The notes: generated from the sequence alone by a model not told the origin. Shown: positions 7,451 through 52,584, numbered from the stretch's first letter. The stretch: 64,000 nucleotides of DNA from Kiritimatiellia bacterium (GCA_045535455.1 JAZSLQ010000125.1:1894-65893); one strand, 5' to 3'. Made by a program: numbers and translations.

Positions 7451-7461
7451 TGTGGTATAAT
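7451..7461 (+). promoter_or_regulatory. extended -10 promoter TGTGGTATAAT
   Basis: Followed by a GGAGG Shine-Dalgarno at 7472-7476 and the ATG at 7484. Confidence 0.5.
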
Positions 7462-7483
7462 ATGCGGCGTTGGAGGAAATGAC

Positions 7484-12493: not shown

Positions 12494-12562
12494 TTGCGGT
12501 GTCGAAGCGGCGAGGGCGCGTGCTTTCCCGGCGAGACGGAACACAAGAAGGAAAGAATCAAG

Positions 12563-12940
12563 ATGGAAATCTATGTTGGTAACCTCGCATACGCGACCAC
12601 CGACGATGGACTCAAGGCGGCGTTCGCGCAATTCGGCGAAGTTACCGCCGTTCGTGTCGTGACCGATCGCATGACCGGTCGCAGCAAGGGATTCGGCTTC
12701 GTCACGATGCCCGACGCCACCCAGGCGCAGGCCGCGATCGACGCCCTCAACGGACACGAACTCGACGGACGCACGGTCCGCGTCAATGAGTCGCAGCCCA
12801 AGCCTCGCGAAGAGCGTCGTGGCGGCTTCGGCGGCGGGCGCGGCGGTTATGGCGGGCGCGGCGGCTATGGTGATCGTGGCGGCTACGGCGACCGTGGCGG
12901 CTATGGCGATCGCGGCCCTCGTCGCGAGACTCGCTGGTAA
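12563..12940 (+). CDS. RRM-type RNA-binding protein with a Gly-rich (GGYGDRG) C-terminal tail
   Basis: MEIYVGNLAYATTDDGLKAAFAQFGEV...KGFGFVTM contains the RNP2 and RNP1 motifs. Followed by five GGYG(D)RG repeats. Confidence 0.85.
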   Translation: MEIYVGNLAYATTDDGLKAAFAQFGEVTAVRVVTDRMTGRSKGFGFVTMPDATQAQAAIDALNGHELDGRTVRVNESQPKPREERRGGFGGGRGGYGGRGGYGDRGGYGDRGGYGDRGPRRETRW

Positions 12941-17039: not shown

Positions 17040-17218
17040 ACAGAGTCGAACAAATCATCGCATTTGTCGATAGGGAATCTCCGGGGGTGCTCGACAGTGT
17101 GGCGGAAGAAGATGGTATATCCAAGGAGGAGATAGTACGCAAGGTACTCGCTCTTTCTAATGGTCGCATGGTGTACACACACCAAGATCGGGATAGAGTC
17201 ACTACCGATGAATCATGA
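17036..17218 (+). CDS. small hypothetical protein (60 aa)
   Basis: Overlaps the RHH gene by 4 nt. No recognisable domain. Confidence 0.3.
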   Translation: MNRVEQIIAFVDRESPGVLDSVAEEDGISKEEIVRKVLALSNGRMVYTHQDRDRVTTDES

Positions 17219-18452
17219 CTTAAGAGTGAAACGGCGCAGGGGTTTTCCGACGGCATTGTTTGCCGCCTTGCTTTTCTCTGCCTGTTTTGGCGCGGAGATT
17301 ACGCAGCCGTCCTTTGGCAGCGACGGCATAGACCGTACTGACCCTAACTTCGTCACGGCGTCGTTACTTTGGATAGGGCCGGGCGAAGAGTTTTTTGGCT
17401 GTGCGGGGCATTCGAGCATCAGATTGGAGTGCCCGAAGTTCAACCTAGACTATTGTTTTTCATGTGAAAGCGAAAGTATTCGTGAAAACTTTGGCCGCTT
17501 TTTAATGGGTGGTCTGAAGACAGGAATGTTTGCAATTCCGACTAAAGAGTTTCTCAAGTTGTATGAAGACTTAGGACGGAGCGCGACGCAATACAAGTTG
17601 AATCTCCCGCCCGATGTGAAACAGCGGCTTTGGGAGATACTTGATAAACAGGTTGAGGATGGGCGTTGCCTGCCATACGACTATATTAAATACTGTTGCG
17701 TTCAGACGATGCTTCAGCCGTTGCTTAAAGCAATTCCACCCTATGAACTTAAGCCAGGTCCTTGGCCCGAAATCTATAAGTTGACGCGCCGTGAAGTGTT
17801 GGCGAATGATCTAGAATGGTGTCCGTGGACAAGATTCTTCCTTCACACGATTGCGGGTACGGAGGTGGATCGTGAGGTGTCTCCGTATAAGACAGTTATC
17901 CTATCCAGGGATTTCGTCAATCTTCTAAGAGATGCGACAATCAACGGGCAGCATATAATAGAAGGTGACGGGGAAGTCCTATTGCCTTTCCAGAAGCCAA
18001 AGAAGACGGCTATAGTAACGCCGGTCATGGCGGCGGCGTGTGTGCTTGTTGTGGCGTGTGTAAACTTGTTGTTGCGGACAAAGTGGATAGATTGGAGTTT
18101 CCTGATTTTCCAGTCGTTGCTTGGACTCTTAATCTCTCATCTTGTGTTAATCTCGCACTTGCCTGCAACTGACTGGAACTGGCTAATCGTGCCGTTCAAC
18201 ATCATTCCGCTTGTATTTTGGAAGTGGCGTCACAAGTGGGCTTTGTGGTTTGCAGGTCTGCTTGTAGCGTGGGATGCATTCATGATTTTCCATCCGCATC
18301 GCCTGACCGATCCTGCATATTTTGTATTGGTCGCCGCATATATCGTATTTTACATCAAGGTCTTTCTTGGCGGCCCCAAAATGTGTCAGGCGGTTTCAAA
18401 ATGGGCAGACAGTTTTTTGCCTAAGGCAGTGCAGTGGCTTAATGAGGAATAA
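17208..18452 (+). CDS. DUF4105-domain (Lnb N-terminal-like) protein with a C-terminal multi-TM region
   Basis: ASLLWIGPGEEFFGCAGHSSIRLECPKFNLDYCF matches the DUF4105 start (LL.cgPGde.ys.fGHsaiRv). At least four TM helices follow in the C-terminal third. Confidence 0.6.
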   Translation: MNHDLRVKRRRGFPTALFAALLFSACFGAEITQPSFGSDGIDRTDPNFVTASLLWIGPGEEFFGCAGHSSIRLECPKFNLDYCFSCESESIRENFGRFLMGGLKTGMFAIPTKEFLKLYEDLGRSATQYKLNLPPDVKQRLWEILDKQVEDGRCLPYDYIKYCCVQTMLQPLLKAIPPYELKPGPWPEIYKLTRREVLANDLEWCPWTRFFLHTIAGTEVDREVSPYKTVILSRDFVNLLRDATINGQHIIEGDGEVLLPFQKPKKTAIVTPVMAAACVLVVACVNLLLRTKWIDWSFLIFQSLLGLLISHLVLISHLPATDWNWLIVPFNIIPLVFWKWRHKWALWFAGLLVAWDAFMIFHPHRLTDPAYFVLVAAYIVFYIKVFLGGPKMCQAVSKWADSFLPKAVQWLNEE

Positions 18453-18486
18453 TCATTGAAACAACATGGGAACACAGGAAAAGAAC

Positions 18487-21400
18487 ATGAAAGAAAAAAC
18501 AATGAAAAAGATTACGATAATGGCGTTTCTGCTGGCGATACTCGCGCCTGTTATGCAGGTGTGGGCAGGAAGCGGCGGCTCTACGACATATTATGCTGCA
18601 TTGAAGGCGCAGGTGTCGTCCAATTCGTCTGGCATGGGTAAGGTCTATGCTGGAACGTCGAATTCAGCACCGTCGGCGAGTAGTTACAAAGCTGATTACT
18701 CGCAAAGCTCCAGTCAGAATTCTACGACGGAGAATGAAAAAAAGAATTTTTATGCTTTTGCGCAGGCGAATGATGGGTATGAGTTTGTCGGTTGGTCCAC
18801 CAGCAACAATGGCTCAACATCTTCATCTGCAAGTCCTTATACTGTTCAAGTGGCATGCACGTCCTCCACTGAATCCAGCCCTACGGTGACGACGGTTTAT
18901 GCAAATTTTAAGAAGAAGGTTCTTGCTGCGTTCAACATCACCTTTGAGACGAGTAGTGCGGGCAGTTATACTGTTGATGGCGCGGCACCGGCCAACAAGA
19001 CAGGATTGACGGAAGCGACTTCCATTACGTTGGCATCGTCCGATGACAAATTCTTAAACTGGGTTGTCAATGGTGCCGAGGTCACGACCAACCCCTATAC
19101 TGCAAGTTATACAGCGAACACGACTATCAGTGCGGTGTTCCTGACCGCAGACATGGTTACTTCTGTCACCACACTTAGCGACTTGACATCGGCACTGTCC
19201 AATGCTCAGTACAAGAAAGTCACCATTCCTTCAGGAACTACGATCCAGATTCCCAAGGGCTCGACGGTTACGGTTCCTTCTGGAAAGCAACTGGTGATGG
19301 ACGGAACGCTGATTGTCTTGGGGACGCTGTCGAACTCCGGTGCGATTTCTGGTAATGGAACGCTCTACAAGATTTCGTACAAGATTGATCAGGGCGATGT
19401 CATTACTGTTTACACGGCTGATGGCAAGGAGTGCGGTGCCATGACGTGTGCCTGCCAAGATTCCAAGATGCCGCGCTACTGCAAGACGACGGTTACGGCG
19501 AACACACCGACTGTCAGCGGAACAATTGGTTGCACGACAACGTGGGGCGTACTTCTTAACGGTACGACGGCATACGCAATCAGAAATCAGAGCCCGAAGG
19601 CGGTCAAGGTTAATGTTGATACGGCGAAGGATTCCAATGGAAAACAGAGCGTCGTCAACAAGATTACATCGGTTGTCGCAAATGGCAATGTGGATGCTTT
19701 GGATGCGAATGCCAACTATGTTCTCTTTGCTGATTGTAGCATGACGGGGCCGTTGGACAGCAGTAAACTTAGGAGCACGGCAACCGTAGATTGTGCAGGT
19801 AAAAAACTGTCTGCCGGTACCAATTCGCATTCGTCATTTGGCATTAGCGTGTTAAATGGTTCGTTTTCGGCTTCTGCTAGCCAGTGGCAGAACGCTCATG
19901 CTGCGTTCTTCAACATGTCCTCCGTGTCGCTTAGCAAAATCAAGGGCACGGTTTCTACCTATTACTTCTATGACTGTGGCACGTCGGCGTCGGCGTGTTC
20001 CCTTTCGTTCGCCTACTACAGTTCGACGCGCACTTCAGATTACCGAACTATCTATCTGTATAGCGGTTATTACAGCTATTCGTTCAACACAACAGACGAT
20101 TCTGGCAAATGCAATGTGTACGGTGGTTCGTTTACAAAAGATCCTTCAGCTTACATCCCGTCTACTTATGACGGAATTATCGACGCCAAGTACGATGGCA
20201 GCAAGTATTACGTCGTGGGGGCGGCACAGGTCGCTGAGACGCTGGCAACTATTGGCGATGCCAAGTATTCTTCTCTCGCAGATGCCGTGGAAGCAGCCAA
20301 TACCGGAGATGAAATTACGCTAAGCGCTGCAATAGACTTGACAGGGAAAACGATTACGATTCCATCTGGCAAGTCCATTACACTTACGCTTGAGAACCAT
20401 CAAATCACGGGCGGTAGAATTGTGAACTATGGAACTCTTATACTCACCGATTCCGCCACAGGGACAGGCACAACCAACGCCGATCCAAGCGGTGGCATCT
20501 TGAATAGCGATATAGATAACTATGGTACGCTTGATTTCGTTTTTGGTACCTACAATGGTGCAATATCTAATAAAGAGGGTACACTTACTACGCACAACGG
20601 CATCTTCAATGGTGCATTGGCAAAAGAAGGCGGCTCGGTCAATTTGCGGGGTGGACATTTTAAGCAGGATGTAACTTCATTTGTAACGTCTGACGCATTT
20701 ATCGTAATCCGAAAGAATAATCTTTATAGCGTTTGTGAACTTCCAGATGGGACGTTGCGCGACACGACAATCAATGGCGTTGCGGGGAGCGCCGCCACGC
20801 CCTATTCAGACGCCGATTACACGCTTATCGCCAATTGGTTCACTGGGACGAAATCTTTACGCACTGGCTACTCGGCGGAAACTTGGGAGCATCTTGCCGA
20901 ATTGCTGTGTTTCTATCAGGTGTTCAACAACAACGGACTTGATGCAACGCTCAAATTTGATCGTGATGTTGCCGCCAATACAATCACACTTCATGCGAGG
21001 ACGACGGCTGCAGCTTCTCGTGCAATTGCAAATGACCTTTCTGCAGATTCGCTCTATCGTGGATTGTCCGAAGTCTTGAATGGTGGAGGATATGCTTCTA
21101 AAACATACAAGGCGTTGTGGCAAGATGATATAAAAACTGTTGCATTGGCTGTTTCGGATTCAACTGTTGGTGCAAACGCAGGTACGGTTTGCACCGAGAT
21201 GATTGAGCTCTGGGAGGAGGTCCGTGCCTCTGACTACTCATCTACTGGGCATAAGTTGACGAATACAGTCCTTATTGTTGGTCAGAAGCGCTTTACCATT
21301 GGCGCTGGCAGCAATGTGGCGATGATTCGCCCCGATGTCGGCGCGGCGACGTTCTATGCGACACTTGACGCGGCGGTGGCGGCGGTCGTGGACGGCGGGA

Positions 21401-22737
21401 CTATCATGCTGGCTAATGATTGTGATAATAATGTGACTGTCGAAAAGGCTTGTACGATTGATACCAATGGATTCAAATTCACTGGTAAGATTGAGACCAC
21501 TGGAGGATATTCCATATCGGAATCTGACGGCGTTTATGTGGTCAAGGCCCCAGACCCCGCCGACTTGGTGAATGTCGAGAATGTCGTTTCGGATGTCGTT
21601 TCTGAAGAATGGCTGGAAGCGAACGAGATTTCGACCGAAGGCAAGACGACAGAAGAAATTCAGGCGGAGGTTCTGGAGAAGTTGAACGAAGAAGATACCA
21701 ACGGCAATGCCAAGTGGGAGAATCTTGTAATTGGCCAGAATGCCGATGAAAAGGCCGCTGTAACCGCTGCCAGCGGTGGTACCGAGACGACTGCCAATAT
21801 AGAGGTGTCCTTCGAAGTCCCGACTAACGCTGAGACGGGTGAGAAGATAGAAACTGGCTATACGGTCAAGTATGCGTTCGACAAGACCGACAGCACTGGG
21901 ACGCTTGAAGGCGAGGCACAAGACAACCCGACGATTGATCTCAAGGGTGTAAAGGAAAACGATCCGACTTACTTCACGATGCGCGCTGTGCTTGAGGCGA
22001 CTGATAACAGCGGAGTGACGGCGGAGGTGCCAGTCGAGAAGACCATTGGCGTCTTTAAGGTGGAGTCCGATGCGGCAGTTACGATTATTCCTGTGCCGTG
22101 GAAGTCGCTTGGCGACGAAGACATCAAGGCGACTGAGCTTGTCCATGCCGCGAGCCTCAGCGATGATGACGAGTTGATTGTCTATGGCGCTGATGGCAAA
22201 TCGCAGACTTGGATTGTGAAGAACGGCGAATGGACTGCTCCGGTTGCTGAATACACTATCGGTGACGATGTTTCCGAGCCGCAGCAAGAGGAACAGCAAG
22301 AGGCCGCTGAACTCTCGCGCGGGCAGGGCGCTATACTAAAGCGAAAGGACACAACCAAGGAGATCGTACTTATCGGACAGGCGGTCACGAGTGAGACGGT
22401 AGAGACGACAATTGCTGCTGCAGGCACAGAGCCGAGCTGGAATCTTGTCGCCTCGCCCAAGATGGAACAGGTTGCGGTTGATACCGTTGCAGGTGAAAAC
22501 ACGTCCGACGAGATTATCGTGCCGACAGCCGGTACGCCGAAGCATTATACCTACAAGGATAATGCGTGGGGTTATACTGGGAAGATCGGCGAAACAGAGG
22601 TGACATTGCCTGGTGGAGTGAAAACAACGGCTGTCCAGTTCGGACGCAAGACGGATGATACGAGCGTTCCCGCGGGTACGGGCTTCTGGTATTTGAACAA
22701 GGATTCCTCCAACAACGATAAGAAGATTACGTGGTAA
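18487..22737 (+). CDS. giant secreted surface protein 1 (about 1417 aa) with a right-handed beta-helix and a conserved C-terminal domain
   Basis: A signal peptide (MKEKTMKKITIMAFLLAILAPVMQVWA) and a Ser/Thr-rich region with a Listeria-Bacteroides-repeat-like block (YAFAQANDGYEFVGWS). Gly/Thr/Asn-rich beta-helix turns follow. The C-terminal 300 aa or so is paralogous to the C-terminus of the 23274-27098 protein. Confidence 0.7.
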   Translation: MKEKTMKKITIMAFLLAILAPVMQVWAGSGGSTTYYAALKAQVSSNSSGMGKVYAGTSNSAPSASSYKADYSQSSSQNSTTENEKKNFYAFAQANDGYEFVGWSTSNNGSTSSSASPYTVQVACTSSTESSPTVTTVYANFKKKVLAAFNITFETSSAGSYTVDGAAPANKTGLTEATSITLASSDDKFLNWVVNGAEVTTNPYTASYTANTTISAVFLTADMVTSVTTLSDLTSALSNAQYKKVTIPSGTTIQIPKGSTVTVPSGKQLVMDGTLIVLGTLSNSGAISGNGTLYKISYKIDQGDVITVYTADGKECGAMTCACQDSKMPRYCKTTVTANTPTVSGTIGCTTTWGVLLNGTTAYAIRNQSPKAVKVNVDTAKDSNGKQSVVNKITSVVANGNVDALDANANYVLFADCSMTGPLDSSKLRSTATVDCAGKKLSAGTNSHSSFGISVLNGSFSASASQWQNAHAAFFNMSSVSLSKIKGTVSTYYFYDCGTSASACSLSFAYYSSTRTSDYRTIYLYSGYYSYSFNTTDDSGKCNVYGGSFTKDPSAYIPSTYDGIIDAKYDGSKYYVVGAAQVAETLATIGDAKYSSLADAVEAANTGDEITLSAAIDLTGKTITIPSGKSITLTLENHQITGGRIVNYGTLILTDSATGTGTTNADPSGGILNSDIDNYGTLDFVFGTYNGAISNKEGTLTTHNGIFNGALAKEGGSVNLRGGHFKQDVTSFVTSDAFIVIRKNNLYSVCELPDGTLRDTTINGVAGSAATPYSDADYTLIANWFTGTKSLRTGYSAETWEHLAELLCFYQVFNNNGLDATLKFDRDVAANTITLHARTTAAASRAIANDLSADSLYRGLSEVLNGGGYASKTYKALWQDDIKTVALAVSDSTVGANAGTVCTEMIELWEEVRASDYSSTGHKLTNTVLIVGQKRFTIGAGSNVAMIRPDVGAATFYATLDAAVAAVVDGGTIMLANDCDNNVTVEKACTIDTNGFKFTGKIETTGGYSISESDGVYVVKAPDPADLVNVENVVSDVVSEEWLEANEISTEGKTTEEIQAEVLEKLNEEDTNGNAKWENLVIGQNADEKAAVTAASGGTETTANIEVSFEVPTNAETGEKIETGYTVKYAFDKTDSTGTLEGEAQDNPTIDLKGVKENDPTYFTMRAVLEATDNSGVTAEVPVEKTIGVFKVESDAAVTIIPVPWKSLGDEDIKATELVHAASLSDDDELIVYGADGKSQTWIVKNGEWTAPVAEYTIGDDVSEPQQEEQQEAAELSRGQGAILKRKDTTKEIVLIGQAVTSETVETTIAAAGTEPSWNLVASPKMEQVAVDTVAGENTSDEIIVPTAGTPKHYTYKDNAWGYTGKIGETEVTLPGGVKTTAVQFGRKTDDTSVPAGTGFWYLNKDSSNNDKKITW

Positions 22738-22744
22738 CCGCTTT

Positions 22745-23254
22745 ATGAAGAAAATTCTCGTAAAAAGTTGTCTGACCGTCGCGCTTGCGCTTTGCGCGCA
22801 AGCAACGATGGCGGATTATCTATATTTTCTCGTCGGTGACGATTCCGGAAATTCGCCTACATATAACGATGACCCTGTTGTCTACAGCTATGCAACAGTT
22901 AAGATGACGGGTGCTGGTGACAGCAGTGGTTATCTGGAACTCTATGCTGGTGGCGCTACTGAGTCGTCCGGCATTGCTATGATGTCCGGAAGCACCGCCC
23001 CAGCATACGCCAAGTTGCCGGACAATTATAAAAATGCTTACAGCACGTTCCTAGTCGAGCTGTGGAATGAAGATGCTAACCGTGTGGCGTGGCAGAGTTA
23101 TAACTTGGCTGGTGTAGGCGGGAATATAGTAGGCAGCAACGCGCAGGGATCTCAGCTTAATGTGACTACTGTTATACCTGAGCCGACTGGCGGGATGCTT
23201 ATGCTTCTCGGCATGGCGGTTTTGGCCATGAGACGCAAGGCAAGAATGTTTTAA
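22745..23254 (+). CDS. small PEP-CTERM sorting-domain protein (169 aa)
   Basis: Signal peptide present. The C-terminus VIPEPTGGMLMLLGMAVLAMRRKARMF has the PEP motif, a TM segment and RRK. Paralog of the 27133-27633 protein. Confidence 0.85.
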   Translation: MKKILVKSCLTVALALCAQATMADYLYFLVGDDSGNSPTYNDDPVVYSYATVKMTGAGDSSGYLELYAGGATESSGIAMMSGSTAPAYAKLPDNYKNAYSTFLVELWNEDANRVAWQSYNLAGVGGNIVGSNAQGSQLNVTTVIPEPTGGMLMLLGMAVLAMRRKARMF

Positions 23255-23273
23255 CTAAGGAAAGGACACAACA

Positions 23274-26200
23274 ATGAAAAAAATGAAGATGCTGATCGCA
23301 GGGTTTGTGCTGGCGCTCGCTGGCATGGCAACTGCGGCTATGGATACGGTGCTGACCTTTTCAACGGTTGGCCCAGACAGGTATGCCGACGGCGAAGACG
23401 TCGTTGACGGCGAGTGTTATGCGCTCGTCTGGACGTCTGATGTGGCTGGCTTTACCTTGTCAGACGACGGCACGGCTACTGGCGGGAAGGTTGTTCTTGT
23501 CGCACCTGTCGCCGAAGGCAGGCGCTGCCCGCCGGTTAAGCTGAACATCAAGGCGTCCGTCGCCCCTCAGTACGAGGGTGGCGTCTGGGGAGTGTACCTT
23601 CTCGACACGCGTGAATCTCCCGAAGGCGAGCGTGTAATTAGCGGAGTCAAGCTCATTCCCGATGCGACGGTTGATGTCGCGAGCGAGGGCTATCTTGTCC
23701 ATACGACCATGAAGTCGAAGGCGCTGCTCGGCGCTTCCGCCGGCGTGGTTGATGCCGAGAGCCTGGTCGCTGCGGTTGCCGCTGGTGGTGAGGTAACGGT
23801 CGCGGCCGATATCACGCTCAATGACGAGCTGGTTGTCGAAAAGGAAGTGACGCTTAATCTTGGAGAGTACAAGATCACTGCGGCGAACGGCAAGAACGCG
23901 ATTCAGGTCGCGGCCGGCGGAAACCTCACGATCAATGCGGAGTCGACGGGCGGTGTTTCGGCGTCCAACGCGCTGGCTGTCTATGCCGACTACGAGCTTT
24001 CGCCCGGCGTGAAGACGATCACGATCAATGGTGGCGTATTCGACGGTGCGCTGCAGTTCAACAAGTATCCGCTCCACACCTCTGAAGTGCAGTCCGGCGA
24101 GGCGGCTGTTCCGACGACGGTTGTTGTCGGTGGCGGTACGTTCAAAGGCCGCGTGAGCATTTACCACTGCCCGTTCACTGTGAATGGCGGTACGTTTGAG
24201 CAGGGCCTTGACACGTCTGACGGTAGCGTTACGGTCTATGCCAACTACAAGTGTCCGGTCACGTTCAACGGCGGTAGCTTCAAGGTCAGGCCGACGCCTG
24301 CAGGTTCGCGCGTTGTCGTCAATGGTGGCGTGTACTACGAGGGTGGTTACTTCAAGGTTGGCGACACAGCCGACTGCCAGGCGACGCGCAATGGCACATA
24401 CTATGCTTCGCTCGCCGAGGCGTTCCAGGACATCGGGCCTGGCACTGTGATCACCGTTCTTGGCGGTGATGAGGCGTCTATCTCTGTCGAGCTTGAACCC
24501 GGCCAGTCGCTGACGGTCCCGTCTACGTTCGCGGGTGCGATAGCGGGCAAGGGTGGTGCTGAACTTGTTGTCACGTATGTGGATGGCACAGCCATCTACA
24601 TGGTAAAGGCGGAGGGCGTGGCGCGTATTGGTGCGCAGTACTACGCCACGCTTCAGGCGGCGTTTGACGCAAGCAAGACCAATGACGTCATTACGCTTCT
24701 TGCCGATGACACGCTTGCGTTCACCTCGCTTGACCGTGCAATCACGCTTGACCTTAACGGCCACAACGTGACGGTGACGGGCGGTGCGGCGGACCTCTCC
24801 AATGGTGCGCTCACCATTGTCGGTAGTGGCCACATGACGGGCTTCGTCGAGCCTTCCGCTGGAAAGGTGAACCTTGTCCTCAAGGGCGGTACATACGGGT
24901 TCGATCCGTCTAAGTACGCTCCGTACGTCATTGAGGCGCTTCCGAACGAGCAGGATCCGGTAGACTGGAGCAATGATCGTCACTATGTGTTCAAGGATTA
25001 TGCGCTTGGCGTCTATGGCGGTTTCCCTTATTGGGCACCAGAAAAGGGCGTGTGGACGGTTGTTCCCGTGCCGAAGGCTTACGTGTCGGCCTATCCTACG
25101 AAGGAAGTCGGCATTGGCGACCCGCTCGACGCCGCTTATTCGTTCGGTGCGTTCAACGCCAACAATGGCGGTGCCAGCTATTGTTCTGACCGCGAAGTTG
25201 CCGACAAGGTTATTACAGGCGACGGAATGCTCAACCTCAACGCACTGACAGATCCGGAGGAGATCACCCGCGCTCTGGCGGTGCTGACCGAGGCGACGCC
25301 GTTCCTCGATTGGCACGCAGACTTCGCGGTGTCGTTCGACAAGCCAATCACGGCTGGTTCGCTCACGCTCGCCGGACAGTACAATGGTTGGTCGAGCAGC
25401 TGGGTATCGTATCCTGCGCCGGCTAATGTTGGAGCGAATGTGGTTCGCCGGCTCCTTGCGGACGAGGGCGGCGCTAGACCCTCCGACTGGCCGTATCAGC
25501 ATATCTGCACTAAGGTGAAAGACTTCAACTGCGGTGCGCGCATGGACGATAGCTCCATCATCGGGACGACGATGAAGGTCCAGCTCAGGCTCTACAAGCC
25601 GGACGGCGACGAGGGCACTGGTTCGCCGTCGATTCTCATCTGCGAGTACAAGTACACGTTCGGCGGCAAGGCGGCACGGATCGAGGACACATTCTACGAT
25701 TCGATTGACGAGGCCATTGCCGAAGTTCAGTCCAACGACGTCGTGGTCGTCCTCAACGACTACACTGGCGCGGTCGATATCAACAACTGCGACAAGCCGT
25801 TCACGGTCAACAGGAATGGCTTCGTGCTTGGAGTGACCGAAACGAACAACATCAATAAGGCAAAGGGCACCGATTGGCACTTCGACAGAATGAGCAACGG
25901 CAGCTGGAGCTACTACAACAAGCCGGCGCCTCCGTCCGAGGATGTGGCTGTCGTCATGGTCGAAGTCGTCGACGATGCGGGTGAGTCTATGTCACTCTCG
26001 GCGCTCACTCCTGATGCGGAGTGGCTGGACAAGAAGACGCAGGAAGGCGAGACGGCCGAGCAGGCTCTTGCCAAGGTCGAGGAGAACGGCAACCAGGCAT
26101 GGCAGAACTACGTGATCGGACAAGATCCGAGCGCGGCAGTCCGTGTCAACACCGCGCAGGCGGATATTGATAAAACACCTGTCGATAACACGCTTACCGA

Positions 26201-27098
26201 AAAGGTGAATGTGCCTACCAATTCCGGCTTCAAGGTGTCGTACGCCATCGACAAGATTGAAGCAGACGGAACGGTTAAAGAGGGTACTCCTCAGGCTTCG
26301 GCAGAAAACTTTACTGTCGATCTTGAGAATGCGACAGACAACGAATCCGGAGTCGCCTACTTCAAGATGACTGCGATCATCGAGGCCGAAGACGGCACTG
26401 GTGCGAAGACCAAGGTTACGTCCGAGAACACCCTCGGCGTCCTGAAGGTTGATGCAACCACTAAGAACACGCCGGTTGCAGTTCCGTGGTCGTCTCTCGC
26501 CGACGACAAGGACATTACCGTCGATCAGCTTGTTCGCACGGCGACGCTCACTCCTGGCGACACGATGACGGCCTACGACAACGAAACGGGCAAGTATAAT
26601 GCCTGGGAGCTGCAGGATAACGGCACGTGGAAGACGGTGCAGTCCGCTGGCGGAGCGGAAACGCAAGATGCTTCTGAGTTTTCGGTTCCTCGCGGCGCGG
26701 CCGTGTGGGTGACGCGTCAGGATCCCACTCAGCCGCTTTACCTTGTAGGCGAGGTGGCGGAGAAGGCGGCCGAGACGCAACTTGAGCCAGCTCCTTCCGA
26801 AGAGAAGAAGTCATGGAATCTCGTTGCGTCTCCTTCGGTAGAGCCTGCCAAAGTTGAAGACATTCTTGCCGGCAACGAGGACTTCGATGTCATCATGGTT
26901 CCGACCGACGCAGCCCCTAAGGTCTACATCTACCGCGATGGCAAGTGGGGCTACGAGACCACCGAAGAGGTTATCAGGGGGGGCCAAGTGGTTGGTGTCA
27001 GGTCAGTGTTCAAGACGGATGACACCGAGATTCCCGCAGGTGTCGGCTTCTGGTACCTCAATGGAAGTACCGATGGCAACAAGACTGTTGAATGGTAA
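23274..27098 (+). CDS. giant secreted surface protein 2 (1274 aa) with a beta-helix and the same conserved C-terminal domain
   Basis: Signal peptide present. Beta-helix repeats such as GGVFDGALQFNKYPLHT and GGTFKGRVSIYHCPF. The C-terminal blocks SWNLVASP and GFWYLN are shared with giant protein 1. Confidence 0.7.
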   Translation: MKKMKMLIAGFVLALAGMATAAMDTVLTFSTVGPDRYADGEDVVDGECYALVWTSDVAGFTLSDDGTATGGKVVLVAPVAEGRRCPPVKLNIKASVAPQYEGGVWGVYLLDTRESPEGERVISGVKLIPDATVDVASEGYLVHTTMKSKALLGASAGVVDAESLVAAVAAGGEVTVAADITLNDELVVEKEVTLNLGEYKITAANGKNAIQVAAGGNLTINAESTGGVSASNALAVYADYELSPGVKTITINGGVFDGALQFNKYPLHTSEVQSGEAAVPTTVVVGGGTFKGRVSIYHCPFTVNGGTFEQGLDTSDGSVTVYANYKCPVTFNGGSFKVRPTPAGSRVVVNGGVYYEGGYFKVGDTADCQATRNGTYYASLAEAFQDIGPGTVITVLGGDEASISVELEPGQSLTVPSTFAGAIAGKGGAELVVTYVDGTAIYMVKAEGVARIGAQYYATLQAAFDASKTNDVITLLADDTLAFTSLDRAITLDLNGHNVTVTGGAADLSNGALTIVGSGHMTGFVEPSAGKVNLVLKGGTYGFDPSKYAPYVIEALPNEQDPVDWSNDRHYVFKDYALGVYGGFPYWAPEKGVWTVVPVPKAYVSAYPTKEVGIGDPLDAAYSFGAFNANNGGASYCSDREVADKVITGDGMLNLNALTDPEEITRALAVLTEATPFLDWHADFAVSFDKPITAGSLTLAGQYNGWSSSWVSYPAPANVGANVVRRLLADEGGARPSDWPYQHICTKVKDFNCGARMDDSSIIGTTMKVQLRLYKPDGDEGTGSPSILICEYKYTFGGKAARIEDTFYDSIDEAIAEVQSNDVVVVLNDYTGAVDINNCDKPFTVNRNGFVLGVTETNNINKAKGTDWHFDRMSNGSWSYYNKPAPPSEDVAVVMVEVVDDAGESMSLSALTPDAEWLDKKTQEGETAEQALAKVEENGNQAWQNYVIGQDPSAAVRVNTAQADIDKTPVDNTLTEKVNVPTNSGFKVSYAIDKIEADGTVKEGTPQASAENFTVDLENATDNESGVAYFKMTAIIEAEDGTGAKTKVTSENTLGVLKVDATTKNTPVAVPWSSLADDKDITVDQLVRTATLTPGDTMTAYDNETGKYNAWELQDNGTWKTVQSAGGAETQDASEFSVPRGAAVWVTRQDPTQPLYLVGEVAEKAAETQLEPAPSEEKKSWNLVASPSVEPAKVEDILAGNEDFDVIMVPTDAAPKVYIYRDGKWGYETTEEVIRGGQVVGVRSVFKTDDTEIPAGVGFWYLNGSTDGNKTVEW

Positions 27099-27132
27099 TC
27101 GTCTCTAAACGCCAAAAGAGAGGAACTACGAC

Positions 27133-27633
27133 ATGAAATCGGTCAAACTTATCATTGCTGCAGCTGCCGTCGCAATTGCGACGACAGCTATGGCGGAGCC
27201 CGACAGCATACTCTACTGGATGGTAGACAAGCCGACATACGAAGATTCGGCCGTGGCTTTCGACCATGTGAAGATTAAGGCGGTTGACGGTGGAACCGGA
27301 AGCTACCTCTATATGTTCAACCAGGGAGCGAGCACGGGATACGATGTGGCCTTCGCGAAGGAGTCGGGCGACACCACTGGCGGCCTCTTCTCGGGGCTGT
27401 TCGACGGCAACGTGGATTACTTCCTCATCGAGCTGTTCGATGACTCGGATTCTCGAGTTGCCTGGCAGCGCGTCAGCTACCAGATGGCCTTTGACAACGG
27501 CAGCATATCGTCACCGTTGGCGGCTGGTGGCGCCACCGTGTATACCATAAGCCAGGTCGTGCCTGAGCCGACGAGCGGCATTCTTCTGCTGCTTGGTTTC
27601 GCCGGACTCGCCCTCCGTCGTAAAAAAGCATAA
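27133..27633 (+). CDS. small PEP-CTERM sorting-domain protein (166 aa), paralog of the 22745-23254 protein
   Basis: The C-terminus VVPEPTSGILLLLGFAGLALRRKKA carries the signal. The blocks LIELFDDSDSRVAWQRVSY and LVELWNEDANRVAWQSY are shared between the two proteins. Confidence 0.85.
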   Translation: MKSVKLIIAAAAVAIATTAMAEPDSILYWMVDKPTYEDSAVAFDHVKIKAVDGGTGSYLYMFNQGASTGYDVAFAKESGDTTGGLFSGLFDGNVDYFLIELFDDSDSRVAWQRVSYQMAFDNGSISSPLAAGGATVYTISQVVPEPTSGILLLLGFAGLALRRKKA

Positions 27634-27657
27634 CATCTGACAGAAAGGAATCATACA

Positions 27658-28401
27658 ATGAAGAAGACAGTATTCTCCGCGCTTGCGGCAATTCTTGTCG
27701 GAACTGCTTTCGCGGCAGCCAACGACAAGCTCGTCATGTTCTCGACCAAGGGACCCGATACCTACGCAGACGGCACCCAGGTTCTCGACAAGGAGTGCTA
27801 CGCACTTGTCTGGGACAAGGATTCCGAGCCGTTCAGCGTCGCGGCCGACGGCTCTACGACCGGCGGCGACATCGTGCTTTTCGCGCCATTTGCCGAAAAG
27901 GGACGTTGCCCGAAGGTGCTCTTCGAGGTGGACGCGGCGCTTGTCGAGAGCAAGTACACCAAGGGGGGCTCCTGGAAGGTCTATCTGCTTGACACGCGTC
28001 GCTTCGGCGACACGGTGACGCTCGCTCCGCTTGTGAACGGAAAGCCGTCGCTCATCAATGCGGCCGGTCTTGTCGGCAATGCGGCAATCAGCGTGGCCGC
28101 TGGCGCTCCAAACTCCGTGAATGTGGCCGCTGGCACTACGGCGGCCACGGCGACGGCTCTTCCGGCAGGCGATGGAAACGTCACGCCGAAGATCTCCGAC
28201 ATCAATGTCAGCGGCGATCTTGTCTACGTGACGGTTGAGAACACCCGCCCGTATCTCGCCTATGATCTGACGGAGGGCGCCAAGCCCGGTGAAGTGACGG
28301 AGCGCGTCAACAATCCGCGTACGGGCGGGGATGACGGCAAGGTCGTACTCGTCGCCCCGAAGAAGGACGGCGGCGCGTTCTTCCGCGTAAACCGCAAGTA
28401 A
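27658..28401 (+). CDS. secreted protein that is a stand-alone paralog of the N-terminal domain of giant protein 2
   Basis: VMFSTKGPDTYADGTQVLDKECYALVWDKD...GRCPKV...VYLLDTR aligns with residues 25-110 of giant protein 2. Confidence 0.6.
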   Translation: MKKTVFSALAAILVGTAFAAANDKLVMFSTKGPDTYADGTQVLDKECYALVWDKDSEPFSVAADGSTTGGDIVLFAPFAEKGRCPKVLFEVDAALVESKYTKGGSWKVYLLDTRRFGDTVTLAPLVNGKPSLINAAGLVGNAAISVAAGAPNSVNVAAGTTAATATALPAGDGNVTPKISDINVSGDLVYVTVENTRPYLAYDLTEGAKPGEVTERVNNPRTGGDDGKVVLVAPKKDGGAFFRVNRK

Positions 28402-28409
28402 GAAGCGGA

Positions 28410-30668
28410 GTGCAAGACACAAAGGCACTTGACGGTGGACTGGCCGCGCGGGATTTTATTCTCGCATCAGCGGCCGGTCTGCTTTCTTTTGCCGCGTTCT
28501 ACTGGCTCTCAATTCCGGGGCTCGACCCTTCGCAGTGGAGCGAGGTCGCCGTTGCCGCACGGCTTCGCCCGCCGCAGGCGATGTTGCCCGGGCTTTGGCG
28601 TGTGCTGACGTGCGGTTTCTTTTCCGCCGTCGGCATACCATTTGCGGTAAAGGCCCTTTCGCTGCTTGGCGCAGCCGTGGGCGGCATCTGCGTCGCCCTC
28701 GTCTATCTTGTGGTTCGCCAGTCGTTTCTGTTCCTGGCGCGCCTTGACGAGAAACATGCCGTCTGGACTAATTTCATCTCGCCGTTCTTTGCGATGGTCG
28801 CAGCGCTTTTTGTCGCCGTGGCCGACCCGATATGGCGAATAAGCCAGACCTTTTCGCCTGAACAGCTTCATTTGCTGTTGTTGCTTTTGGCGATATACGC
28901 CTGGCTCAGGTGGATTACGCTCGGCAGCAACTGGCGTCTTTATTCCCTGGTGGCGCTGCTGGGGGTGGCGTCCGCCGAAACGCCATTCGCGATTATCCTG
29001 ACTCCGCTGCTCCTTGCTGGTTACTGCCGCTTTCAGCGCTGCGTGGAGAACGGCATGGCCTTCAATCACAAGCTGGTGTACGCTCTGGGCCCCCTGCCCC
29101 GCTGGCGAATGTTCTTTATCTTCATCGGTTCGCTTGGCTTGGCCATCCGGATGAATGTCAAGATCTTCGCTGCGCTTGGCGGCGTAGCAGCCAACGGCTG
29201 GCGAATGGGCGATCTATACTTCCGGTACGGCATTGACTACTGGCACGTGCTGACGGGCTCTTCGAATCTTGCCGGTTGGGCGCTGGGCCTTGGCTTCGGG
29301 CTGTTTCCGCTTGTCGTGACGATGATGCTCCTGCCCCGTTCGATAAGAGACACCCGTCCGCTGGCGTTCCACCGCGGAGTCCTTCTCTTTTTTGTTTGCG
29401 CGCTCGCGGTCATGCAGTGCGGCGCATTCCCGGCGGCCCGGTTCTGGACGCTGGCGACGGAGACGGCTTCCGTCTCGTCCGGCTTTTTCCTGTCTTTCTA
29501 CGTGGTCTGCTCGGCCGTGACCATCGCCATGGTCGGGGCCACCTTCGCATTTGAATGCCAGCGGGTCTATCTATCCGTCGACGAGCCAAGGCCCGGCCTT
29601 GCGCTGCGCGGCCTTGTACCCGCAGTTGCGGTCGCGCTTTTTGCGCTCGCGGCCGCCCATGCTTCGCGGACGGTCGAGGCCGAGATGCAGCGGATTGTCC
29701 GTGACGCGCTGGAAGAGACGGTGCGCGAATGCGGCGATGCGAAGTGGATCTTCACGGACGGACGCCTCGACGACGGGCTTTCGCTTGTTGCCGCGGAGTC
29801 TGGACGGGAAATCGTGCCTCTCAACATGATGTCCGGCGCAACTCGCTGGGAACAGTCCTTGCGGGAGCGTCATTTCCCCGAGGGTAGCGCAGATCGCGAC
29901 AATGCGTCCATCGGCATACCGGCGCTTCTCAGGGTCTGGGCGGGCGAAAAGCCTGGCGGGATGGATGAGGCGGCGGTGCAGCTTGGCTTTGAATTCTGGA
30001 AGCGCGAGCATAAGTCGCCGCCAAAGGCGTCTGGCTTCGTTGCGCGTACAAGCGGCATGAGCGACGAAGAGGCGGCGAGAGGAATCGAGGCGGCCAAAGC
30101 GCTATCCGCGCGAATTTTTGAGCTTGAGGGCAAGAAGGAACGCGCCCATCCGTCTCCTGCGCTCGCGGACGCGCTTTCATTCGTTTCGTGGCGTCTTTCG
30201 CGCCTGGCTCGGTTTAGGAATGACGACGATACCGCTGACAGGCTTGACCGCGGCAACGCGGCACTCAAGAGGACGTTGTCCGTAGTAGATCATGAACGCC
30301 AGCGCACATTCATGCGCCTGACGCCGTTGGAAGGGTTGCGCCTCGCCTTGGGCCGTACCGACTTCGTCGAGGCGCGTCGCCATGCGTCGGCCGTCTTGAA
30401 AAGTGACGAGGATCATCCAGAAGCCAACTTCGGCATGGGCATGAGCTATCTTGTGGAGGGGCGTTTGAACGATGCGGAGCTTTACCTTAGGCGGTGTCTG
30501 AAGAAGTGTCCCAACGAGCCGGCGGTCCTAAACAACCTTTCGATAATTTGTCGCAAGACGAATCGCTACGAAGAGGCGGAGGAACTTGCGCGGAAGGCGC
30601 TCAAGGTGTTTCCCGATTCGCCAGAGGTCAAACAGACGCTGCAGGACGCAATAAACAGGGCTAAGTAG
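28410..30668 (+). CDS. polytopic membrane protein (10 or more TM helices) with a C-terminal TPR domain, possibly a glycosyltransferase or O-antigen-ligase-like (DUF2723/PMT-like) protein
   Basis: GTG start. The N-terminal 420 aa is hydrophobic and multi-helical. C-terminal TPRs include ANFGMGMSYLVEGRLNDAELYLRRCLKKCPNE. No exosortase CSG motif was seen. Confidence 0.45.
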   Translation: MQDTKALDGGLAARDFILASAAGLLSFAAFYWLSIPGLDPSQWSEVAVAARLRPPQAMLPGLWRVLTCGFFSAVGIPFAVKALSLLGAAVGGICVALVYLVVRQSFLFLARLDEKHAVWTNFISPFFAMVAALFVAVADPIWRISQTFSPEQLHLLLLLLAIYAWLRWITLGSNWRLYSLVALLGVASAETPFAIILTPLLLAGYCRFQRCVENGMAFNHKLVYALGPLPRWRMFFIFIGSLGLAIRMNVKIFAALGGVAANGWRMGDLYFRYGIDYWHVLTGSSNLAGWALGLGFGLFPLVVTMMLLPRSIRDTRPLAFHRGVLLFFVCALAVMQCGAFPAARFWTLATETASVSSGFFLSFYVVCSAVTIAMVGATFAFECQRVYLSVDEPRPGLALRGLVPAVAVALFALAAAHASRTVEAEMQRIVRDALEETVRECGDAKWIFTDGRLDDGLSLVAAESGREIVPLNMMSGATRWEQSLRERHFPEGSADRDNASIGIPALLRVWAGEKPGGMDEAAVQLGFEFWKREHKSPPKASGFVARTSGMSDEEAARGIEAAKALSARIFELEGKKERAHPSPALADALSFVSWRLSRLARFRNDDDTADRLDRGNAALKRTLSVVDHERQRTFMRLTPLEGLRLALGRTDFVEARRHASAVLKSDEDHPEANFGMGMSYLVEGRLNDAELYLRRCLKKCPNEPAVLNNLSIICRKTNRYEEAEELARKALKVFPDSPEVKQTLQDAINRAK

Positions 30669-32031: not shown

Positions 32032-33210
32032 ATGGGCTACGCGAAGAGAAAGACGTCTGGAGCCGGCGCAGAAACCGCGCTGGAAAAGGCGTCTTCCTCT
32101 CGCGCAGTCCAGTCTTCCAAGTCGTCGCAGTCGATCTGGAACCTCCAGTTTGGAGGCTCGAAGCAGAAGACGTCGATGAAGTCCGTCGAGGTCCTTCTCT
32201 TCACTTCCGAACTTGCGGACCTGATCGAAGCCGGCATGACTCTTGGCCAGGCGCTTCAGGCGCTCGCCAACCAGGGCGAGGAGGACTCTGCCCAGCGCTA
32301 CGTCTGCCAGGACCTTTGCGACCGCATCGTTCGTGGCGAGACGTTTTCCGACGCCTGCGCGCACCATCCGAAGACGTTTCAGCCGCTCTATTCGAACATG
32401 ATCCGCGCCGGCGAGGCGTCGGGCGCTCTCGTCGAGGTGCTGCGCCGCCTGGCCGACCACTACGAACGCTACGACAACATGCGCGGCAAGATCAAGAGCG
32501 CGATGTCGTATCCGGTGATCGTCCTCTGCTTTGGCGTCGCCGCCGTCATAGGCGCGCTAGTGTGGATTATCCCGAAGTTCAAGAAGGTGTTCGATTCGAT
32601 GGGCGCGGCCTTGCCTCTCCCGACCCGGATGCTCATCGGGCTTTCCGAGTTCCTGATCCACTACGGCTGGACGCTCGCCATCGCCGCCGTCTTGTTCTTC
32701 ATCTGGTTCAGGAAGTGGAAGGATACGCCCGCCGGCCGCGCGAAGATCGACGGCTGGAAGCTCAAGGCGCCGCTCGTCAAGGGCATCGTCGCGGCAGGTG
32801 CGTATTCTTCGCTTGCCTACACGCTCAAGACTCTTCTCACAAACGGCGTGAACGTCCTTCAGGCGCTGAAAATATCTGAAGAGACGTGCAACAACGCCGT
32901 GATCGCCGAGGCGCTTGCGACGGCTCGTCGCCGCGTTACCGACGGCACTTCGATTTCGGGGCCTCTCGCGTCGTCGGGCGTCTTCCCGCGCATGATGACA
33001 GACATGCTCGCCGTCGGCGAACAGGCCGGCGACATGGCGGCTTCTCTTGAACACATCGGCAAACGCTACCAGAAGGATATGGACCGCAACATCACGGCCT
33101 TCACGAACGCGCTCGAGCCGATTCTGATCGTAATGATCGCCGGCGCCGTCGGCTTTGTCGCGATAGCGATTCTGATGGCGGTATTCCAGGTCTCATCGTC
33201 GCTTGGGTAA
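32032..33210 (+). CDS. type II secretion / type IV pilus platform protein (GspF/PilC family)
   Basis: Two GspF-domain repeats, for example LIEAGMTLGQALQALA and MLAVGEQAGDMAASLEHIGKRY, and three TM segments. Confidence 0.8.
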   Translation: MGYAKRKTSGAGAETALEKASSSRAVQSSKSSQSIWNLQFGGSKQKTSMKSVEVLLFTSELADLIEAGMTLGQALQALANQGEEDSAQRYVCQDLCDRIVRGETFSDACAHHPKTFQPLYSNMIRAGEASGALVEVLRRLADHYERYDNMRGKIKSAMSYPVIVLCFGVAAVIGALVWIIPKFKKVFDSMGAALPLPTRMLIGLSEFLIHYGWTLAIAAVLFFIWFRKWKDTPAGRAKIDGWKLKAPLVKGIVAAGAYSSLAYTLKTLLTNGVNVLQALKISEETCNNAVIAEALATARRRVTDGTSISGPLASSGVFPRMMTDMLAVGEQAGDMAASLEHIGKRYQKDMDRNITAFTNALEPILIVMIAGAVGFVAIAILMAVFQVSSSLG

Positions 33211-52484: not shown

Positions 52485-52508
52485 TGTGAGTATAGCATAT
52501 CATAATCC

Positions 52509-52538: not shown

Positions 52539-52564
52539 TGGGATAACACATCGAGCAGGCGTCT

Positions 52565-52573: not shown

Positions 52574-52584
52574 TATGGCCAGAT

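Follow-up and report, generated by a model that had tools for sequence, protein, structure and literature searches.

The locus described here appears to be a doubled version of a surface-protein cassette that is conserved in Kiritimatiellia and relatives, and we consider this reading, taken with the full anchoring explanation given below, to be evenly balanced between right and wrong. In gut Kiritimatiellae the cassette is conserved and unannotated and looks like an undescribed mode of cell-surface protein display. The basic cassette would consist of four genes, the first for a secreted two-domain protein of about 250 aa (the p247 family), the second for a secreted protein with a module at its C-terminus (Cmod) and a passenger of none to thousands of residues, the third for a secreted protein of about 165 aa with a PEP-CTERM sorting signal, and the fourth for a GT-C glycosyltransferase that resembles TMEM260 and has TPR repeats in the periplasm (the p752 family). 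The original prediction had been a two-partner unit of a giant protein and a PEP-CTERM protein, and its conserved 1:1 pairing stands, but the defining unit is the C-terminal module of about 230 aa and not the giant protein. The features of the locus are listed in Table 1, in positions of the window, which is the whole stretch of 64,000 nucleotides that was analysed.

Table 1. Features of the cassette locus and of the gene upstream of it
Feature	Position	Strand	Description
Lnb-family (DUF4105) membrane protein	17160..18452	+	PF13387 Lnb_N 30 bits, cut-off 22.2
giant1	18466..22737	+	secreted; 1423 aa counted from first ATG
Cmod1, giant1 C-terminal module	21568..22734	+	minimal module of ~236 aa 22027-22734
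small1	22745..23254	+	169 aa; signal peptide, ~120-aa beta-rich core, PEP-CTERM tail ~23174-23251
giant2	23274..27098	+	secreted; 1274 aa
Cmod2, giant2 C-terminal module	25941..27095	+	385 aa; minimal 236-aa module 26388-27095
small2	27133..27633	+	166 aa; signal peptide, predicted beta-sandwich core, canonical PEP-CTERM tail VPEPTSGILLLLGFAGLALRRKKA ~27559-27630
p247	27658..28401	+	247 aa; secreted, two domains
p752	28410..30668	+	752 aa; membrane domain ~28410-29669, TPR repeats ~30327-30644

From giant1 through p752 the gaps between the genes are, in order, 7, 19, 34, 24, and 8 nt, and no terminator-like sites were found in them; this packing supports an operon-like arrangement. The predicted succession of two giant secreted paralogs, each followed by a paralogous PEP-CTERM protein of 166-169 aa, was borne out, with gaps of 7 and 34 nt between giant and small gene. 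The first giant protein had been given as 1417 aa from position 18487 and there is indeed a giant ORF, but 18487 is an internal ATG, the first ATG being at 18466. The true start is likely to be the ATG at 18502 (MKKITIMAFLL...) because the orthologs begin there and because the start region repeats that of giant2. When the window was searched with HMMs for an exosortase (EpsH/Xrt) there was no match, in agreement with its predicted absence, and neither a polytopic membrane protein among the window ORFs without a Pfam family nor a PrsK/R/T or EPS gene was found within the window. In the syntenic loci L001-L003, L010, L014-L016, and L019 the Lnb-family gene lies 5' of giant1, in L056 and L066 it directly follows the module gene, and it is missing in L011-L013 and in most other cassettes; it recurs as a neighbour, and as a member of the cassette it is a candidate only.

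The two giants are 31% identical across their C-terminal ~600 aa (E 3e-55). The first ~900 aa of giant1 are a mosaic among relatives (22-86% identity) while its C-terminus remains conserved, and its GC content is 0.49 compared to about 0.60 in the flanking sequence. In giant2 a p247-like N-terminal domain (23274-23615) is followed by a repeat-rich middle and the C-terminal module, and its full-length homologs were found in gut Kiritimatiellae only. Matches to InlB B-repeats in giant1 were weak in HMM searches and no Beta_helix or pectate-lyase HMM matched the giants. For the predicted beta-helix there was nothing beyond a short similarity, in cap repeats of the passenger region, to SLH surface proteins of Firmicutes, which is a likeness to Gram-positive anchors. 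The giants had been predicted to carry no recognisable anchor signal and this held, as no HMM of a T9SS CTD, an autotransporter, or another sorting domain matched them at E<=0.1.

What the giants do have in common is a C-terminal module of 385 aa, the final ~236 aa of which match 869 protein clusters (representative hits); the jackhmmer E-value for Cmod1 was 3e-106. Among the matches listed (150 of the 869) the module is at the extreme C-terminus in all 150 and the proteins that bear it span 131-6935 aa. The alignment has the invariant motifs VPW..L, WNL, VPT..P, WGY, and PAGxGFWY, the Pfam and NCBIfam models gave no match to the tail module, and the AF2 model had structural matches only to FN3/Ig-like beta-sandwich domains, with no barrel. 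As modelled, Cmod is a beta-sandwich tail module of about 230 aa, multi-domain in its full extent (230-385 aa). Because it is always at the extreme C-terminus of passengers of widely varying size, it can be likened to a sorting or docking module, and it would seem to behave like one. Module-only proteins of ~235-290 aa are the commonest form of the cassette and probably its ancestral form, and since module-only proteins of about 250 aa exist too, giant size is not essential. The position of the module and the diversity of its passengers also recall the logic of a T9SS CTD or an autotransporter, and Cmod could instead direct secretion by some further export route, with the small PEP-CTERM protein and p247 acting as a membrane-tethered periplasmic escort or chaperone and not as the final anchor. 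It agrees with this that the small protein, from the topology of PEP-CTERM proteins (PMC1569441), would sit anchored in the inner membrane until it is processed, and that the window has a T2SS F gene 1.4 kb farther downstream. However, the T2SS gene does not recur as a neighbour, no transporter gene is conserved across the cassettes, and a multi-domain module of 230-385 aa would be a large one if it were no more than a signal, and we consider a secretion signal quite unlikely.

The pairing was surveyed in 59 loci from GTDB species genomes, which hold 61 Cmod genes with enough downstream sequence, and it is conserved in the relatives: a PEP-CTERM gene directly adjoins about 52 of the 61. The PEP-CTERM ORF is immediately downstream in 45 and immediately upstream in 3 more; L057, L019, L022, and L023 were counted as paired after inspection, in addition to the 45. 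The nine Cmod genes that have no adjoining PEP-CTERM gene are those of L036, L037, L041, L054, L058, and L056, the last of which has little downstream sequence, and three that are the first of two (in L019, L025, and L064). When a strict PEP-CTERM pattern was used, 49 ORFs were found in 801,562 nt, every one of them adjoining a Cmod gene and none elsewhere. In the window and in each of L001-L006 the Cmod and the small gene are present twice, p247 once, and the GT-C gene at most once. A local accident, that is, a tandem duplication in one lineage and a pairing without functional meaning, might be argued for the closest relatives (L001-L006 and L010), which could have the arrangement by descent alone, but it has next to no probability considering that the pairing, with proteins from 235 to >3600 aa, recurs in other genomic contexts, other gene orders, and distant lineages including environmental metagenomes.

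The tail module and the small partner also diverge together. When the identity matrices of Cmod and of the adjoining small protein were compared for 57 pairs, the Mantel r was 0.775, which was not reached in any of 2000 permutations. The identity of small1 tracks the C-terminus of giant1 and not its N-terminus; small1 is 93% identical to its counterpart in L002 whereas the giant1 N-termini there are only ~25% identical. The 1:1 pairing, the co-duplication, and the co-divergence of tail module and small partner support a specific two-partner relationship, though the co-divergence and the adjacency would be equally expected from simple genetic linkage. The evidence for association is all genomic, and the proteins may instead be co-expressed but independent components of a coat or matrix, with regulation in common and perhaps glycosylation by the GT-C enzyme too, in which case Cmod would not bind the small protein and the giants would be released or otherwise retained. 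PEP-CTERM proteins are generally tied to exopolysaccharide/matrix loci (Haft et al., PMC1569441), and Cmod occurs without an adjoining partner in five of the loci named above (L036, L037, L041, L054, and L058), as independent components would. What makes this explanation unlikely, in our judgement, is that the duplicated loci are strictly 1:1 while p247 and the GT-C gene stay single, that the strict PEP-CTERM genes in the 0.8 Mb adjoin Cmod without exception, and that the position of Cmod is the same on every kind of passenger.

The small partners are a real family. The two in the window are 34% identical (E 9e-16), and when the cores were compared without signal peptide and PEP tail, 51 of 63 unique ones fell in one phmmer cluster. 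The N-terminal signal peptide, the PEP motif, the hydrophobic helix, and the basic cluster at the very C-terminus, in which they are like the proteins of the PEP-CTERM system, are invariant in 16 small homologs. The tails of the two are VPEPTSGILLLLGFAGLALRRKKA and IPEPTGGMLMLLGMAVLAMRRKARMF; small2 passes both cut-offs, with 25.9 bits for TIGR02595 (cut-off 16) and 23.6 bits for PF07589 (cut-off 20.7), whereas small1 is above the first with 17.1 bits and below the second with 17.2 bits. Apart from the PEP-CTERM tail the searches matched the small proteins to no characterised family. Their structure was modelled with low confidence only (pLDDT 64). In PEP-CTERM/exosortase sorting every cargo bears its own PEP-CTERM tail (Haft et al. 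2006, PMC1569441; TIGR02595, PF07589). Here, unlike in that system, the large proteins have in place of such a tail a C-terminal module of another kind that is unannotated, each is encoded 1:1 next to a small PEP-CTERM protein dedicated to it, and a GT-C glycosyltransferase homolog and a third secreted protein are linked to the pair.

That third protein, p247, has an N-domain in common with giant2, which a linker joins to a C-domain with FFRV at its end, and the family had no match in Pfam and NCBIfam. Its first 113 aa share 50% identity with the giant2 N-terminus (E 1e-28) and have no match in giant1, so that the description of it as a stand-alone copy of the N-terminal domain of the giants holds for giant2 only. 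The domain is fused to the N-terminus of giant2 and of its orthologs. Homologs of p247 adjoin the module/small pair in L001-L006, L010-L018, L021, L038, L042, L048, L050, L051, L062-L072, and L074-L084. The 247-aa and 752-aa genes had been put down as accessories; they are present as predicted, but because both recur beside the module/small pair, both families are conserved core components and not accessory ones. It is conceivable that p247, module-only Cmod, and the small protein form a fibre or a pilus-like heteropolymer, with the PEP-CTERM protein at its base and the giants as tip variants of the Cmod subunit. We find this distinctly improbable, as structurally the proteins match beta-sandwiches of a generic kind, a sorting signal is present in just one of the three, and the cassette has no linked gene for an assembly protease, an usher, or a polymerising sortase.

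The predicted 752-aa polytopic protein with TPR repeats was confirmed: p752 has 11 predicted hydrophobic TM segments at residues 16-415 and TPR matches at residues 644-745. A gene of this family follows the small gene directly in about 30 loci. In a reverse search from the GT-C gene the order p247, Cmod, small, GT-C was found in 9 environmental loci, and in L073 and L081 the order is kept as far as the upstream sequence reaches; L078 has no cassette gene within 2 kb upstream of the GT-C gene and L079 is without upstream sequence. The GT-C gene is absent from many giant-type cassettes, e.g. L001-L006 and L011-L018. PF11028 (DUF2723) matches 10 of the 12 environmental cassette members (best E 4.8e-13) and does not match p752 even at E<=10. 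When the gut clade was aligned with the environmental set by hhalign, the probability was 97.6% (E 4.6e-12, 421 columns), and by such profile-profile comparison p752 is homologous to cassette proteins with PF11028 and PMT_2 matches. TMEM260 O-mannosylates Ig-like IPT domains and has 11 TM helices and a non-cytoplasmic TPR domain (PMC10214176). Like the protein O-mannosyltransferases TMEM260, PMT, and TMTC, which combine a GT-C fold with TPR, p752 has a TPR region on the non-cytoplasmic side after its 11 TM helices, and its neighbours are predicted beta-sandwich proteins, comparable to the Ig-like (IPT) domains that TMEM260 modifies. It differs from them in that it is itself below every Pfam threshold and in that the loop-1 Asp conserved in the environmental clade is Arg in the gut clade. 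It is best described as a divergent homolog of TMEM260-like GT-C glycosyltransferases and as a probable protein-glycosylating membrane enzyme. D56 (GLDV), invariant in the environmental clade, aligns with Arg in 21 of 24 gut-clade sequences including that of the window (GLRPP), and for this reason the window homolog may be altered or inactive; acidic residues are common 8-12 positions upstream. As an exosortase p752 was rejected, with no Pfam/NCBIfam exosortase match at E<=1 and no invariant Cys/His in the membrane domain.

From these comparisons we infer how the cassette might work, including the binding, the anchoring, the glycosylation, and the dependence on an exosortase. Sec would export the three soluble components, p247, the Cmod protein, and the small protein, and the PEP-CTERM helix would hold the small protein in the inner membrane, where it would then be processed and sorted by an exosortase whose gene lies in another part of the genome. 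Through its Cmod tail the large protein would dock specifically onto its cognate small partner, so that the adhesin-like passenger would be tethered at the cell surface although it has no sorting signal itself, p247 would be a shared third subunit or adaptor, and the GT-C/TPR enzyme would glycosylate at least one of the Ig-like domains of the cassette in the periplasm. The principle is that of anchoring scaffoldins on Gram-positive surfaces (cohesin-dockerin cellulosomes; SLH/sortase-anchored), where a small protein, sorted by a covalent or membrane signal, tethers a large one through a C-terminal docking module, and here it is only proposed; cohesin and dockerin resemble the cassette proteins in neither sequence nor fold, the host is diderm, and the interaction is a predicted one. 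Two-partner secretion (TpsA/TpsB) similarly places a giant adhesin-like secreted protein beside a dedicated partner gene, but in the cassette this partner is a PEP-CTERM protein of 165 aa and not an Omp85-type beta-barrel, the putative recognition element is C-terminal and not an N-terminal TPS domain, and no TPS or POTRA HMM matched the cassette proteins. The giants were rejected as autotransporter or Omp85-dependent proteins, as no HMM match to a C-terminal beta-barrel translocator or TPS domain was found. Cmod was likewise rejected as a T9SS C-terminal domain, there being no CTD HMM match and a length far above ~80 aa; the T9SS CTD (e.g. PMC7468200) is a single Ig-like domain of ~80 aa and Cmod has several domains in 230-385 aa, the structural match between them is no better than to generic FN3 domains, and T9SS belongs to Bacteroidota with PorU/PorV as partner whereas here the lineage is PVC and the partner a PEP-CTERM protein.

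Our tentative proposal, which we think somewhat less probable than its negation, is that Cmod represents a new class of C-terminal surface-display domain, with passengers of none to ~6,700 residues, that docks non-covalently, in a 'piggy-back' manner, onto a small protein sorted by exosortase, and that the Ig-like components are modified by a bacterial O-glycosyltransferase of the TMEM260 type. If this is true, the cassette would be a two-component anchoring system without a described counterpart in diderm bacteria, and p752 would be the first TMEM260 homolog from bacteria for which genomic linkage points to candidate substrates.

Seven tightly packed ORFs lie on the + strand between 17160 and 30668, and since the gaps between them are only 7-34 nt long and no terminator-like site was found in these gaps, they probably form a single operon. 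The first encodes an Lnb-family membrane protein. It is followed by the genes for two large secreted paralogs, giant1 and giant2, each with its small PEP-CTERM partner (small1, 169 aa, and small2, 166 aa), for a 247-aa secreted protein (p247) and for a 752-aa membrane/TPR protein (p752). The ORF of giant1 opens upstream of what is likely to be its true start, the ATG at 18502, because the orthologs begin with MKK...IMAFLL and because the start region is repeated in giant2. The paralogy proposed in the original prediction was borne out for the giants, which are 31% identical across the C-terminal ~600 aa (E 3e-55), and for the small proteins, which are 34% identical (E 9e-16). It was also proposed that p247 is a copy of the N-terminal domain of the giants, and this holds for giant2 (first 113 residues, 50% identity) but not for giant1, with which there was no match. 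The DNA belongs to a Kiritimatiellae bacterium of an animal gut, as homologs up to 98% identical carry this annotation. No exosortase match was found within the window, and none of its ORFs without a Pfam family encodes a polytopic membrane protein. Elsewhere in the window there is an adjoining pair of genes for an NTP_transf_2 nucleotidyltransferase and a HEPN-domain protein of 136 aa each (7433-8250), which resembles an MNT-HEPN toxin-antitoxin module, and a gene for a 148-aa protein with a strong eukaryote-type RRM_1 RNA-recognition motif (12494-12940; E 3.9e-24).

ORFs of the putative operon in the window
Feature	Position	Strand	Basis
Lnb-family (DUF4105, lipoprotein N-acyltransferase-like) membrane protein	17160-18452	+	PF13387
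giant1	18466-22737	+	ORF
small1	22745-23254	+	ORF
giant2	23274-27098	+	ORF
small2	27133-27633	+	ORF
p247	27658-28401	+	ORF
p752	28410-30668	+	ORF

A C-terminal region of ~385 aa is common to giant1, giant2 and the remoter giants P0039 (2113 aa) and P0040 (1872 aa), and its alignment shows the invariant motifs VPW..L, WNL, VPT..P, WGY and PAGxGFWY. When the last 236 aa of this tail module were used as the query in an exhaustive phmmer search, 869 cluster representatives matched at E<=1e-3 and 452 at E<=1e-10, and in all 150 matches listed the module was at the extreme C-terminus of proteins that ranged from 131 to 6935 aa. This position, kept across proteins of such different lengths, suggests that the tail module acts as a C-terminal sorting or docking domain does. 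Neither the module, nor the partner family apart from its PEP-CTERM tail, nor the third subunit, p247, is covered by any Pfam or NCBIfam model. Known sorting domains (T9SS CTD, autotransporter, TPS, LPXTG and SLH) were rejected for the giants as no HMM matched, and the module is like T9SS CTDs and autotransporters in position only and qualifies as neither. Full-length relatives of giant2 were found in gut Kiritimatiellae only, and its remoter matches are Firmicutes SLH surface proteins with which it shares only short cap repeats. In giant1 the tail is conserved and the N-terminal ~900 aa are mosaic among close relatives (22-86% identity). The identity of small1 tracks that of the giant1 tail; between the window and the related locus L002 the small1 proteins are 93% identical and the giant1 N-termini only ~25%. 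The GC content of the giant1 region (18000-22000) is 0.49 compared to ~0.60 elsewhere in the window, and this low GC together with the mosaic N-terminus suggests that passenger domains have been swapped, or acquired horizontally, ahead of a stable tail-plus-partner unit. Two other large secreted-type proteins of the window, one of 1329 aa with DUF5107 and TPR (52138-56127) and a Laminin_G_3 (concanavalin-like lectin) protein of 551 aa (60441-62096), have neither the tail module nor a PEP-CTERM tail.

Both small1 and small2 finish in a canonical PEP-CTERM tail, and small2 exceeds the curated cut-offs of TIGR02595 and PF07589. Sec signal peptides are present, and the PEP-CTERM tail is found on the partner only. 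In related metagenome contigs the contexts of small2 homologs repeat the order Lnb, giant, small, giant, small, p247, and giant, small, p247 is also the order around remote giants whose genomic contexts are unrelated. The module alignment was used to scan GTDB, with each species represented by a single genome, and 59 loci were obtained. Almost all of them come from Kiritimatiellae MAGs of the gut (ruminant, horse or human), one belongs to a Lentisphaerales MAG, and in these loci 61 module genes had adequate downstream sequence for judging. A PEP-CTERM ORF starts about -40 to +80 nt from the stop codon in 45 of the 61, L057, L019, L022 and L023 were added to these after inspection, and in 3 of the 61 the PEP-CTERM ORF is immediately upstream. 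Across the 801,562 nt that these loci comprise, 49 ORFs fit a strict PEP-CTERM pattern, and every one of them adjoins a module gene, with none elsewhere. The predicted pairing of a giant with a PEP-CTERM protein is real and conserved. Of 63 unique partner cores, stripped of signal peptide and tail, 51 fell into a single phmmer cluster, which argues that the partner is a protein family and not just any PEP-CTERM protein. In duplicated loci module and partner are retained 1:1, and p247 and p752 remain single. The identity matrices of modules and adjacent partners are correlated (Mantel r 0.775, reached by none of 2000 permutations), but linkage alone would yield this too, and the correlation is therefore best read as co-inheritance of a unit rather than as contact. 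That these are coat proteins which are co-regulated yet do not interact is an alternative that we consider unlikely.

Nine module genes are without an adjacent PEP-CTERM partner. Such partnerless module proteins include those of L036, L037, L041 and L054 (~1100-1500 aa) and of L058 (280 aa), and they may rely on a partner gene at another site in the genome; in L054 and L058 a p752-type (GT-C) gene comes directly after the module gene. A 'Rosetta' fusion of the small protein to p247 in L019, L022 and L023 was considered and rejected as a domain fusion, as it is an in-frame read-through beyond an intact PEP-CTERM tail. In these loci (L019:10850-12241, L022:11072-12340, L023:4644-5912) the small ORF lacks a stop after the basic cluster and runs on into the p247 homolog at its signal peptide; a genuine fusion, a start within the ORF or an artefact of assembly could explain this. 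Among the small-protein homologs P0015 is the farthest removed (32% identity; L007:3485-8288, also L008 and L009), and it was rejected as a member of the cassette because its context is different, with no detectable gene for the tail module or p247. Its neighbours are a 206-aa internal-repeat protein, two unknowns and a polytopic membrane protein of 605 aa whose C-terminal region is helical; none of them has a Pfam match, and this context may represent another form of the cassette.

When families were built by jackhmmer over all loci, p247 homologs were found just 5' of the module gene or just 3' of the partner, and p752 homologs (760-1100 aa) directly 3' of the partner in about 30 loci. The commonest compact order is p247 (~250 aa), a module-only protein (~235-290 aa), the PEP-CTERM partner (~165 aa) and the membrane/TPR protein, as in L042, L048, L051, L062, L070 and L071. 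Since the module-only proteins of these cassettes are so short, giant size is optional, and the defining unit is the tail module and not the giant as had been assumed. In a reverse test, the membrane domain of the L070 and L071 proteins was searched against JGI/ENA metagenomes and gave 12 loci, 9 of which, from digesters, activated sludge and other sources, repeat the four-gene order. L073 and L081 show this order as far as their upstream sequence extends, the 2 kb upstream in L078 contain no cassette gene, and the L079 locus lacks upstream sequence. The p247 and p752 genes had been regarded as accessories, and their recurrence beside the pair makes both of them core. The N-domain of p247 is fused at the N-terminus of giant2 and its orthologs, which ties p247 functionally to the module proteins. 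A chance arrangement is scarcely credible, being contradicted by the GTDB species loci, by the adjacency of all strict PEP-CTERM ORFs to module genes and by the environmental four-gene loci. The Lnb gene and the gene for a T2SS protein F (32032-33210, 1.4 kb 3' of p752 and not recurrent beside other cassettes) were rejected as members, as neither is kept across cassettes. The Lnb gene is directly 5' of the cassette in the window and in its syntenic relatives, and directly 3' of the module gene in two unrelated loci (L056:2170-2721; L066:2277-3494); this link might be functional or merely reflect a favoured insertion site.

In p752, 11 predicted TM segments precede a soluble region that contains TPR repeats. 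Direct assignment to a Pfam family failed, as p752 itself matches TPR models only, and the word-indexed homolog search retrieved nothing beyond close relatives, which bear the annotation 'tetratricopeptide repeat protein'. Its link to a named family was obtained through the environmental cassette orthologs, 10 of 12 of which match PF11028 (TMEM260-like protein O-mannosyltransferase; best E 4.8e-13) and 4 of 12 PMT_2. When 21 gut-clade membrane domains, including that of the window, were compared by hhalign with the 12 environmental ones, the two alignments having no sequence in common, they matched with 97.6% probability (E 4.6e-12, 421 columns). TMEM260, an enzyme that O-mannosylates IPT domains, which are Ig-like, has the same architecture, a GT-C module with 11 TM helices and then luminal TPR repeats (PMC10214176). 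As judged from the profile-profile homology and the shared architecture, p752 is a divergent TMEM260-like GT-C homolog. In loop 1 the environmental clade has an invariant Asp (GLDV motif), whose counterpart in the gut clade, p752 included, is an Arg (GLRPP; window 28410-28620, p752 residues ~39-63; alignments A4 and A6), and the gut clade may have an altered chemistry or may have lost catalysis. p752 was also considered as an exosortase or rhombosortase and rejected, as no exosortase HMM matched. Rhombosortases act on a different type of C-terminal sorting signal; the p752 membrane-domain profile searched against the PDB gave the rhomboid protease GlpG at E~0.3 over ~135 residues, which was treated as noise.

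The locus would be an exosortase-linked surface display system in which the cargo module is untagged and a dedicated partner bears the tag, accompanied by a third subunit and a TMEM260-like glycosyltransferase. To our knowledge, no partner-module arrangement has been described for PEP-CTERM sorting, and a literature search, full text included, found nothing relevant on exosortase or PEP-CTERM in Kiritimatiellae. In the described system every cargo bears its own tag, and the small partner of the window is a bona fide PEP-CTERM protein (PMC1569441). The proposed course of events in such a system is that an exosortase whose gene lies elsewhere processes the partner, which then acts as a cell-bound anchor, that the module docks on its cognate partner so that the passenger is tethered, that p247 is a shared subunit or adaptor, and that the GT-C/TPR enzyme glycosylates Ig-like components in the periplasm. 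The docking idea is similar to that of Gram-positive anchoring scaffoldins, with no homology behind the likeness. Direct observation provides the four families in conserved order, the module-partner pairing at 1:1, the C-terminal module position and the GT-C homology; counted against docking are the partnerless module genes and the many giant-type cassettes from which the GT-C gene is missing. On balance we give the docking model as a whole about an even chance, and place well below it, and somewhat below the coat-protein alternative, the possibility that the partner is an export escort; a heteropolymeric fibre is more doubtful still.

Kiritimatiellae are abundant, mostly uncultured polysaccharide degraders of ruminant, horse and human guts, and their largest proteins are unannotated. 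The present analysis defines for them a tail module that occurs in at least 869 protein clusters, together with its partner family, the third subunit and the glycosyltransferase linked to them. The human homolog of TMEM260-type glycosyltransferases underlies SHDRA syndrome, and if docking is true the cassette would offer a tractable bacterial setting for these enzymes. Docking would also account for the retention of giant adhesin-like proteins on these cells, and it would widen exosortase biology from cargo that bears its own tag to one tagged anchor for each untagged cargo.
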